Shown here piece after piece: positions 21,001 through 24,000 of a stretch of 26,967 bases of DNA. Within the stretch, counting starts at the first letter, position 1; every line of letters starts with the position of its first letter. The position numbers are program-made. Where the stretch lies: positions 1 to 26,967 of IMG/VR virus record IMGVR_UViG_2541047926_000013; one strand, given 5' to 3'. This DNA is from a virus. Lineage: Duplodnaviria > Heunggongvirae > Uroviricota > Caudoviricetes.

Positions 21001-24000
21001 CCCGTAAGAACGGCAAATCAGCAATCTCTGCCGGTGTCGCCCTGTATTGTTTTGCCTGTGATAACGAGTTCGGCGCGGAAGTGTATTCCGGTGCCACGAC
21101 GGAGAAACAGGCATGGGAAGTCTTTCGTCCGGCAAGACTGATGTGTAAACGCACACCCATGCTGACGGAAGCGTTCGGGATTGAGGTTAACGCCTCAAAC
21201 ATGAATCGTCCGGAGGATGGCGCGCGGTTTGAACCGCTGATCGGTAACCCCGGTGATGGATCATCACCCCACTGTGCGGTGGTGGATGAATATCACGAGC
21301 ACGCCACCGATGCGCTTTACACCACGATGCTTACCGGGATGGGGGCGCGACGTCAGCCACTGATGTGGGCCATTACTACTGCCGGGTACAACATTGAGGG
21401 GCCGTGCTACGACAAGCGGCGGGAAGTCATCGAGATGCTCAACGGCTCGGTGCCTAACGATGAACTGTTCGGGATCATCTATACCGTTGATGAAGGTGAC
21501 GACTGGACCGACCCGCAGGTGCTGGAAAAAGCCAATCCAAATATTGGCGTGTCGGTTTATCGCGAATTTTTGTTAAGTCAGCAGCAGCGTGCGAAAAATA
21601 ACGCCCGTCTGGCAAACGTCTTTAAAACAAAACACCTCAATATCTGGGTGTCGGCGCGTTCGGCGTATTTCAACCTGGTGAGCTGGCAGAGCTGCGAGGA
21701 TAAATCACTGACCCTTGAGCAATTCGAGGGGCAGCCGTGCATTCTGGCCTTTGACCTGGCGCGTAAACTGGATATGAACAGCATGGCGCGACTTTATACC
21801 CGCGAGATTGACGGTAAAACGCATTACTACAGTGTGGCCCCGCGTTTCTGGGTACCGTATGACACGGTGTACAGCGTCGAGAAAAATGAAGATCGACGGA
21901 CAGCCGAACGCTTTCAGAAATGGGTGGAAATGGGCGTTCTGACCGTTACCGATGGTGCGGAGGTGGATTATCGCTACATCCTCGAGGAGGCCAAAGCGGC
22001 GAACAAAATCAGCCCGGTCAGTGAGTCACCCATCGACCCCTTCGGGGCGACCGGGTTGTCACATGACCTTGCTGATGAAGACCTGAACCCCGTCACTATC
22101 ATTCAGAACTACACCAACATGTCCGACCCGATGAAAGAGCTGGAAGCGGCAATTGAATCGGGGCGCTTTCATCATGATGGCAATCCCATCATGACCTGGT
22201 GTATCGGCAACGTGGTCGGCAAAACTATTCCGGGTAACGATGATGTGGTGAAGCCCGTCAAAGAGCAGGTGGAAAACAAAATCGATGGTGCAGTTGCGCT
22301 GATTATGGCGGTTGGCAGAGCCATGCTGTACGAGAAAGAAGACACGCTGTCTGACCACATTGAGTCCTACGGGATCCGCTCGCTTTAACTGAGGTAATTA
22401 TGATCATGCTGATTCTCGCGCCTCTGGTGGGCGTGCTGGGGGCGCTTTTGCTGGCGTATGGTGCCTGGCTGATTTATCCCCCGGCGGGGTTTGTTGTTGC
22501 CGGGGCGTTGTGCCTGTTCTGGTCGTGGCTGGTGGCGCGATATCTCGACCGTACACAGACGTCTGTCGGCGGAGGTAAATAGTGTTCTTTTCGGGATTAT
22601 TTCAACGAAAAAGTGACGCACCGGTGACCACGCCAGCAGAGCTGGCGGATGCTATCGGGCTGTCATACGACACCTATACCGGAAAGCAGATCAGCAGCCA
22701 GCGGGCCATGCGACTGACGGCGGTTTTTTCCTGTGTCAGGGTGCTGGCGGAGTCGGTCGGGATGTTGCCCTGCAACCTGTATCACCTGAACGGCAGCCTG
22801 AAGCAGAGAGCCACTGGCGAACGTCTGCATAAGCTGATCTCCACGCATCCCAATGGCTATATGACGCCGCAGGAGTTCTGGGAGCTGGTGGTCACCTGTC
22901 TGTGCCTGAGGGGAAACTTTTACGCCTACAAAGTGAAAGCATTTGGCGAAGTGGCTGAACTGCTGCCCGTCGATCCCGGCTGTGTGGTACCGAAGCTTAA
23001 CAGTAGCTGGGAGCCGATCTATCAGGTCACATTCCCGGATGGCTCCACGGATGTACTGAGCCAGGAGGATATCTGGCATGTGCGCACGCTGACGCTGGAC
23101 GGACTGGTGGGGCTGAATCCCATCGCCTATGCCCGCGAGGCAATATCGCTGGCAGCAGCGACCGAAGAGCACGGGGCCAGACTGTTCAGCAATGGCGCGG
23201 TGACGTCGGGTGTGTTGCGTACAGAGCAGACGCTGTCAGATCAGGCTTATGAGCGCCTGAAGAAAGATTTTGAGGAGCGTCACACCGGGCTTGGCAATGC
23301 TCACCGCCCGATGATCCTTGAGATGGGGCTGGACTGGAAGTCGATGGCGCTGAACGCCGAGGACAGCCAGTTCCTGGAAACCCGCAAGTTTCAGCTTGAA
23401 GAAATCTGTCGTCTGTTCCGGGTGCCATTGCACATGGTGCAGAACACCGATCGCGCCACCTTCAACAATATCGAAGAGCTGGGGCTGGGATTTATCAACT
23501 ATTCACTGGTGCCGTATCTGACCCGCATCGAACAGCGGATCAACACCGGACTGGTACGAAAAAGTAAGCAGGGCGTTTATTACGCCAAATTTAACGCCGG
23601 GGCGTTACTGCGCGGGGATATGAAGTCCCGTTTTGAAGCCTACGCCACCGGGATCAACTGGGGAATTTACTCTCCCAATGACTGCCGCGACCTGGAAGAT
23701 ATGAATCCACGACCCGGTGGTGATGTCTATCTCACACCGATGAACATGACCACGAAACCCTCCGATGGCAGTAAAGCCGGTAAGCAGAAGGATAACGCCA
23801 ATGCAGACGAAACAACGTCTTGATGTACCGCTGAGTCTGAAATCTGTCAGTGACTCCGGTGAGTTTGAAGGGTATGGCTCCGTCTTTGGTGTAAAGGACA
23901 GCCACGATGATGTGGTGATGTCCGGGGCATTTGCTGCTTCCCTGCGGGCGTGGAGTGACAGAAAAGCGTTACCTGCGCTGCTCTGGCAGCACCGCATGGA

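Follow-up and report, generated by a model that had tools for sequence, protein, structure and literature searches.

Between the genes for the large terminase subunit (TerL) and the portal protein of a tailed-phage provirus lies one short reading frame, and the question it raises is whether such a gene is a passenger in the head operon or belongs to it. The DNA analyzed here, called the window below, is a provirus fragment of 26,967 nucleotides (nt), IMG/VR record IMGVR_UViG_2541047926_000013. A first-pass annotation had described the open reading frame (ORF) as a 60-amino acid (aa), two-helix membrane protein with its own Shine-Dalgarno (SD) sequence, and had taken it for an accessory insertion, possibly a superinfection-exclusion or membrane-targeting factor. 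The ORF is indeed present as described, at 22400..22582 on the + strand (ATG 22400, TAG 22580-22582). Judged by its sequence, it is almost certainly ymfR, the gene of the YmfR protein (PHROG 502) in the e14 prophage of E. coli K-12. Taken as a package, our observations are best read as a conserved late membrane hairpin that is coupled to the portal gene, is not a moron and acts in connection with the portal; we hold this reading tentatively, at something short of an even chance.

Both junctions of ymfR are tight. The TerL gene (20655..22388, 577 aa; PF03354 at E 3.4e-26, PF20441 at 7.2e-34) ends with the TAA at 22386-22388, and the ymfR ATG follows 11 nt downstream; the ymfR SD, GAGGT (22391..22395), is located 2 nt past the TerL stop and 4 nt 5′ of the ATG. 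At the other end, the ymfR TAG and the GTG start (22582) of the portal gene (22582..23823, 413 aa; PF04860 at 6e-108) have one base in common, forming a TAGTG stop/start overlap (22580..22584). The portal SD, GGAGG (22571..22575), lies within ymfR codons 58-59, which encode Gly-Gly. All these elements are on the + strand, and both SD sequences were read directly. The C-terminal Gly-Gly is kept in the close family because the portal SD sits in those codons. Judging from this layout, translation of the portal is coupled to that of ymfR through the overlap.

Inside ymfR codons 7-16 there is also one GC-rich inverted repeat of 12 pairs, followed by TTTTG (22418-22445), with a terminator-like score. 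Such sites are no commoner than in shuffled sequences; the repeat could slow ribosomes or transcription. An antisense ORF of 78 aa (22385..22621) was considered and dropped, since conservation and codon-level selection are all in the + frame.

The gene itself is known already. A 401-nt segment around the ORF matches 1373 of 5426 complete E. coli genomes, with the best matches 99% identical, and the RefSeq features under a 99% match are 'ymfR: protein YmfR', phage portal protein and terminase large subunit. The window carries an ordinary allele that is near-identical to these; about one quarter of complete E. coli genomes have the gene. The phrog_502 profile ('membrane protein') matches at E 3.7e-28, with residues 1-55 aligned to profile positions 3-57 of 58. 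The product also has the length (~60 aa), the two hydrophobic helices, the short (I/V)YxPAG turn and the slot between TerL and a PF04860 portal that characterize YmfR of PHROG 502. The local gene order around ymfR (b1150) of e14 in K-12 is aaaE, ymfR, beeE; different from the window, where terminase and portal genes are both intact, the flanking genes of e14 (aaaE and beeE) are pseudogenes. The same block was observed in SfII, SfIV, SfI and 118970_sal3 (DNA identity 96.6-97.8%), in ST64B (Sb3; 88%) and in phiP27 (L37; 79%), and the YmfR orthologues of all these phages are 60 aa in length and occupy the same TerL-portal slot as in the window. No Pfam, NCBIfam, PADLOC or PDB-sequence profile matched the YmfR protein, and Foldseek against the PDB returned generic helical hairpins alone (E > 3). 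With Pfam at E <= 1, 55 family members gave sub-threshold matches to two-helix DUFs, mainly DUF1206 and DUF2244, which were not counted as membership. A literature search on ymfR and on small transmembrane genes located between those of terminase and portal turned up neither a functional study nor an experiment on YmfR.

In these phage records, the usual label of the gene is 'putative integral membrane protein'. In Escherichia phage vB_EcoM-689R6 (L155, ON470584.1, 2052-2228) the YmfR orthologue, its start placed two codons late, is labelled 'head-tail joining protein W', and the label is likewise found in vB_EcoM-720R4 and Salmonella phage As1. It was attached because the slot between large terminase and portal equals that of lambda gpW and the sizes are similar; it is a positional mis-annotation. 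Different from the predicted membrane hairpin, gpW is a soluble head-completion protein. The gpW identity was rejected for YmfR, which matches no gpW or connector family and has 46 uncharged residues in a row, not the composition of a soluble protein. A further labelling problem concerns one 5.6-kb contig titled 'MAG: Bacillota bacterium' (L092, JAEWTL010000102.1; MAG, metagenome-assembled genome), which is 98% identical over ymfR to enterobacterial prophage and is most likely mis-binned in its MAG.

Residues 1-46 of YmfR are uncharged, the sole charged residues being R47, D50, R51 and K60. AlphaFold2, supplied with a 24-sequence alignment, gave a helical hairpin with helices at 2-25 and 27-57 (mean predicted local distance difference test score, pLDDT, 73). 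The predicted segments are one transmembrane helix (TM1) at about 2-24, the turn IYPPAG at 25-30, a second helix (TM2) at about 30-46 and a cytoplasmic tail at 47-60. Relatives carry basic residues at both termini; by the positive-inside rule, both termini of YmfR should therefore be cytoplasmic and the IYPPAG turn periplasmic. We infer an N-in/C-in topology, that of a two-helix inner-membrane hairpin.

The two parts of the protein evolve differently. Among 90 closely related loci, 20 nucleotide alleles encode 7 protein variants, and the changes are nearly all at tail positions 52-54. Compared to enterobacterial relatives of 60-67% identity, the ratio of nonsynonymous to synonymous substitution rates (dN/dS) is 0.19-0.40 for the whole ORF and 0.07-0.31 for codons 1-47, the membrane core; those of TerL and portal are 0.02-0.09. 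The membrane core is under purifying selection, whereas the short cytoplasmic tail is free. Apart from 167 close homologues, one profile search of 1.84 billion cluster representatives recovered 426 clusters (50% identity) at E <= 1e-3, almost all of 45-80 aa. They share the core motif G-x6-G-x-W-x2-Y-x-P-A-G-x4-G; in the 137 of 426 clusters used for this count, the conserved positions are G14 (96%), G21 (99%), W23 (81%), P28 (81%), A29 (78%), G30 (88%) and G35 (98%). At least five representatives (P0157, P0186, P0187, P0212 and P0264) are independent tandem double-hairpin fusions with the motif in each half; the context was checked for P0187 and P0212, and each is encoded directly 5′ of a portal gene. 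As a repeated two-copy fusion is to be expected of a working unit with at least two hairpins, the tandem forms suggest that YmfR hairpins self-associate. The spacing of glycines in helix 1 (G11, G14 and G21) and helix 2 (G30 and G35) is compatible with tight helix packing.

To follow the gene into distant relatives, members were located through contigs encoding profile-matched proteins and through profile searches of genomes. The P0158, P0237, P0184 and P0133 hairpins, which are 27-41% identical to the window YmfR, each stop a few bases from a PF04860 portal start or overlap it, and TerL lies upstream in these loci wherever the contig extends far enough. The hairpin ends at or overlaps a PF04860 portal start in L003, L084/85, L087 and L088, and likewise in SfV. 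In 400 genomes sampled evenly from the phylum of E. coli, five more small-ORF profile matches (L106-L110) were found, and all five show the order TerL, hairpin, PF04860 portal. The same arrangement is present in 3/3 matches (L145-L147) from 400 genomes of a second phylum, that of the MAG titled 'Bacillota bacterium', its name being taken from the title. Like the single hairpins, the tandem forms of L158 and L159 stand directly before a PF04860 portal, and the slot is kept with three downstream protease types, S78, S49 and ClpP. The hairpin family is old, and its members of 45-80 aa lie immediately 5′ of a PF04860 portal in two phyla. Among small-ORF relatives with readable flanks, the sole exception to portal adjacency seen is L156. 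Its tandem double hairpin P0186 (102 aa, 1500-1808) has an S78 protease 300 nt downstream and no recognizable portal or terminase adjoining, and the flanking products of 161, 320 and 100 aa gave no PHROG match. Profile matches within membrane proteins of 200-450 aa (L111-L113 and L148-L154) were rejected as composition-driven false positives.

The slot was also surveyed from the portal side. PF04860 is present in 83 of 301 sampled genomes. A small two-helix ORF ends at the portal start in 6 of the 30 best PF04860 portal loci, so the expectation that terminase and portal genes are usually adjacent is borne out by HK97 but understates how common a hairpin in the slot is. Hydrophobic small ORFs are enriched in the TerL-portal slot (5/40, versus 9/929 elsewhere in the same loci; p = 1.4e-4). 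Because two of the six slot hairpins (L127 and L131) were missed by the profile, the profile counts understate prevalence. Mapped on a tree of 42 portals, the presence of the hairpin is clustered, taking 5 changes compared to 13.5 in label shuffles (0/500 as low). Hairpin-bearing clades with good support number three or more, and the hairpin-free clades include that of HK97. By this tree, the hairpin has been gained or lost several times.

Where it is present, the hairpin follows the portal. Across 15 hairpin-bearing loci, a small sample whose members are related by descent, hairpin and portal distances are correlated with a Mantel r of 0.81 (p = 2e-4), and hairpin distances and those of the final 300 residues of TerL with an r of 0.59. 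The partial r is 0.70 for the portal given TerL and 0.11 for TerL given the portal. As far as such distances can tell, the hairpin co-diversifies with the portal rather than with TerL; this is co-inheritance, and physical interaction is not thereby proven. Between SfV and the window, the first ~1650 nt of TerL are 96.6% alike, whereas the TerL end, hairpin and portal differ as one block.

The SfV hairpin is itself unannotated. SfV (L002, U82619.2) contains at 2289-2450 one two-helix ORF of 53 aa, with an ATGA overlap with the TerL stop, which hhalign aligned to the hairpin family with 91% probability (E 1e-6). The SfV annotation starts the portal (orf3) at 2392, which hides the ORF; a more probable start of the portal gene is the GTG at 2440, which follows AGGGGG. 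A separate comparison, of phiP27 (L001, 2998-6145) with the window (20655-23823), gave synonymous divergences (dS) of 2.2 for TerL, 0.8 for portal and 0.1 for ymfR, which is strong mosaicism. The low value over ymfR, compared to those of TerL and portal, points to recent exchange there, and the exchange probably also takes in the 5′ part of the portal gene.

How might such a hairpin act? The ymfR gene has no transcription signals of its own and is located within the late packaging/head operon. Somewhat more guardedly than for the package as a whole, we propose by analogy that YmfR acts late, as an oligomeric membrane hairpin by which initiation of the portal or prohead is assisted at the inner membrane. 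The protein would be made late, at the low level typical of TerL and portal cistrons; it would insert in the inner membrane with both ends cytoplasmic and self-associate via its glycine-rich faces. As a helper that phages can dispense with, it may then bring portal synthesis, or initiation of the portal ring and prohead, to the membrane. Two variants can be conceived. In one, hairpin and portal would make a weak contact; in the other, without any protein contact, co-translational insertion of the hairpin cistron would draw the coupled portal cistron to the membrane. In phage T4, the portal gp20 assembles on the inner membrane, helped by the membrane protein gp40. Under the favored reading, YmfR would resemble gp40 as a small inner-membrane, non-virion protein that aids the portal start of head assembly. 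The likeness is one of analogy only. Compared to YmfR, gp40 is the larger protein and possesses a cytoplasmic part, and its gene is not known to adjoin that of the portal.

Several observations weigh against the portal-helper reading. The main objection is that the hairpin presents to the cytoplasm a very small and variable surface, its conserved residues being close to the periplasmic turn. The part exposed to the cytoplasm is ~13 residues in size and is the least conserved portion of the protein; tail identity is 23-38% where that of the core is 68-74%, family-wide information falls below 1 bit past position 47, and residues after R47 are essentially free. The best-conserved residues, the four glycines, W23, P28 and A29 listed above, are located toward the periplasmic turn, distant from a cytoplasmic portal. 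The pattern of conserved core and variable tail is equally compatible with the rival readings. No hairpin-portal fusion protein was found, by length, among the best 150 profile matches, and the co-inheritance with the portal could be due merely to the overlapping stop and start codons.

The hairpin can also be missing altogether. In HK97, TerL and portal abut with nothing between them. The same is seen in L115 (G050:C8, portal about 44179-45156), a prophage in an AT-rich genome; on the portal tree, its portal stands as the starred sister to the clade of the window portal. The TerL end ('...LSDHILNVGIRSL') and portal start ('MKIFNLFKRKS...') of L115 are clearly homologous to those of the window (portal 'MFFSGLFQRKS...'), and no hairpin profile match was reported anywhere in the L115 genome. 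Since HK97 and L115 go without the hairpin while their TerL and portal are homologous, the comparison indicates that ymfR is dispensable in at least some lineages and that portals of this family are workable without it. Absence from close relatives had been proposed beforehand as the observation to look for against a role of the ORF; such an absence exists, cleanly, in the fairly close relative L115, and what it speaks for is dispensability in some lineages.

The alternative that survives best is a late membrane effector outside head assembly, which we regard as a doubtful but serious possibility. Such a protein would oligomerize or bind a host or phage membrane protein (holin, spanin, insertase or transporter) and thereby tune lysis timing, membrane energetics or envelope physiology, the slot before the portal being historical linkage. 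It accounts well for conservation in the membrane-embedded, periplasm-proximal half rather than the cytoplasmic tail, for the helix-helix contacts in the membrane that the glycine-rich faces and tandem fusions indicate, and for dispensability in HK97 and L115, as expected of a fitness-tuning gene. However, it leaves unexplained why one slot is occupied across two phyla and three protease types and why the hairpin tracks the portal and not TerL. The window moreover has its own complete lysis cassette at 17009-18384, consisting of holin/antiholin (phrog_126), endolysin (phrog_90) and Rz-like spanin (phrog_13). No holin family passes the threshold; Phage_holin_3_6 matches 3 of the 55 members at E >= 0.09. 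With the full cassette and no holin family match, a holin role is unlikely. Just 5′ of the lysis genes lies a gene for a 350-aa DNA methyltransferase (15976-17028; phrog_67, E 3e-102), whose final 20 bases also belong to the holin gene if the latter is read in its longest frame (from 17009).

The second alternative develops a possibility raised in the first-pass annotation, namely a superinfection-exclusion or defense moron that would block DNA entry of incoming phages; we consider it improbable. Small inner-membrane proteins with two membrane helices are a known exclusion architecture, that of T4 Imm, which YmfR resembles in size, location and predicted helices. PHROGs places phrog_502 in the category 'moron, auxiliary metabolic gene and host takeover'; among related portals, ymfR occurs patchily, and the conserved turn on the periplasmic side could be presented to the injection apparatus of an incoming phage. 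Different from YmfR, whose gene is embedded in and coupled to late structural genes, T4 Imm is an early gene that is expressed on its own. Searches of PADLOC (5027 models) returned 0 families at E <= 1 for YmfR, and no Pfam family, exclusion families included, came above cut-off for the 55 members. Nor does the locus look like that of a moron. Consensus scans found no sigma-70-like promoter in the 500 nt upstream (21890-22400), and 10 terminator-like matches, inside coding sequence, compared to 7.9 +/- 2.5 in shuffles. Both ymfR junctions are too tight for transcription signals, and the GC content over ymfR (0.58, versus 0.50-0.63 in the flanks) shows no base-composition deviation. The ancient synteny is unlike the turnover typical of morons.

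Expression in K-12 also speaks against exclusion. With an SOS-inducing compound, ymfR of e14 was induced (log2 fold change 4.5) together with ymfL, ymfM, ymfQ and tfaP (PMC10012262). Because it is co-induced with e14 lytic genes, this copy behaves as a lytic-cycle gene. Taken together, these observations indicated that ymfR is, by its signals, not a moron but a conserved resident of the head operon, in contrast to what the phrog_502 category implies. The proposal of superinfection exclusion found no positive evidence. Of the term 'accessory insertion', the first word holds in the evolutionary sense, as HK97 and L115 lack the gene; the second is not supported, given the backbone GC content, no bracketing promoter or terminator, the portal coupling and a position kept down to ~27% identity in two phyla.

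It is very improbable that the ORF is just a translated spacer, its product without a role, at which termination-reinitiation determines how fast the portal is translated. The one-base overlap and the portal SD in the last ymfR codons are what it predicts, and the tail is nearly free except for the Gly-Gly that encodes this SD; however, the membrane core evolves at a dN/dS far under 1, and hundreds of clusters retain one specific motif even at <30% identity. Members from different phyla agree in length and in their two-helix design, and HK97 and L115 couple TerL straight to portal without any spacer. Least probable of all is that YmfR travels in the head, close to the portal, as a minor virion or ejection protein and is then inserted into the membrane of the next host: adjacency and coupling to the portal, together with the 'W' label in some GenBank records, speak for it, but the uncharged stretch of 46 residues makes a soluble, packageable state unlikely, similarity to gpW or connector families is lacking, the label is positional only, and no proteomic report was found in the literature searched. 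The probability that remains after these readings goes to something else.

The head module around ymfR runs in the order HNH endonuclease, small terminase, TerL, ymfR, portal, S78 protease and HK97-type capsid protein, all on the + strand. By Pfam, the HNH endonuclease gene (19688..20038) lies 5′ of the terminase genes, the small terminase (Terminase_4) is at 20155..20658 and the prohead protease (Peptidase_S78) at 23765..24451; the HK97-type major capsid protein (PF05065) is encoded at 24466..25671. Between the lysis genes and the HNH/terminase block, the window contains, at 18547-19334, genes for a regulator-like protein of 177 aa whose C-terminal part is Rha-like (phrog_129) and for a phrog_875 protein of 85 aa.

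The present analysis contributes a survey from the portal side, the observation that L115 cleanly lacks the gene, a partial-correlation test, the split of selection between core and tail, the tandem fusions and the hidden SfV homologue. For annotation, it means that ymfR is mislabelled, as 'moron' by category or as 'head-tail joining protein W', and is missed in some genomes, as is the 53-aa homologue of SfV beneath an over-long portal annotation. The significance is modest for the window copy and higher for the hairpin family as a whole. In its widest form, the proposal would make YmfR-family hairpins an unrecognized class of head-assembly helpers across HK97-like phages of multiple phyla: a membrane oligomer at which the coupled portal is made and ring-assembled, so that nucleation of the single portal vertex, and with it of prohead initiation or packaging, would take place at the membrane as in T4. 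We think this generalization unlikely as it stands. If YmfR is not a portal helper, the family would still be a widespread late membrane effector. A tiny hairpin that has travelled with the portal across phyla may offer a testable candidate for a helper in the step that gives each capsid of an HK97-like phage exactly one portal vertex.

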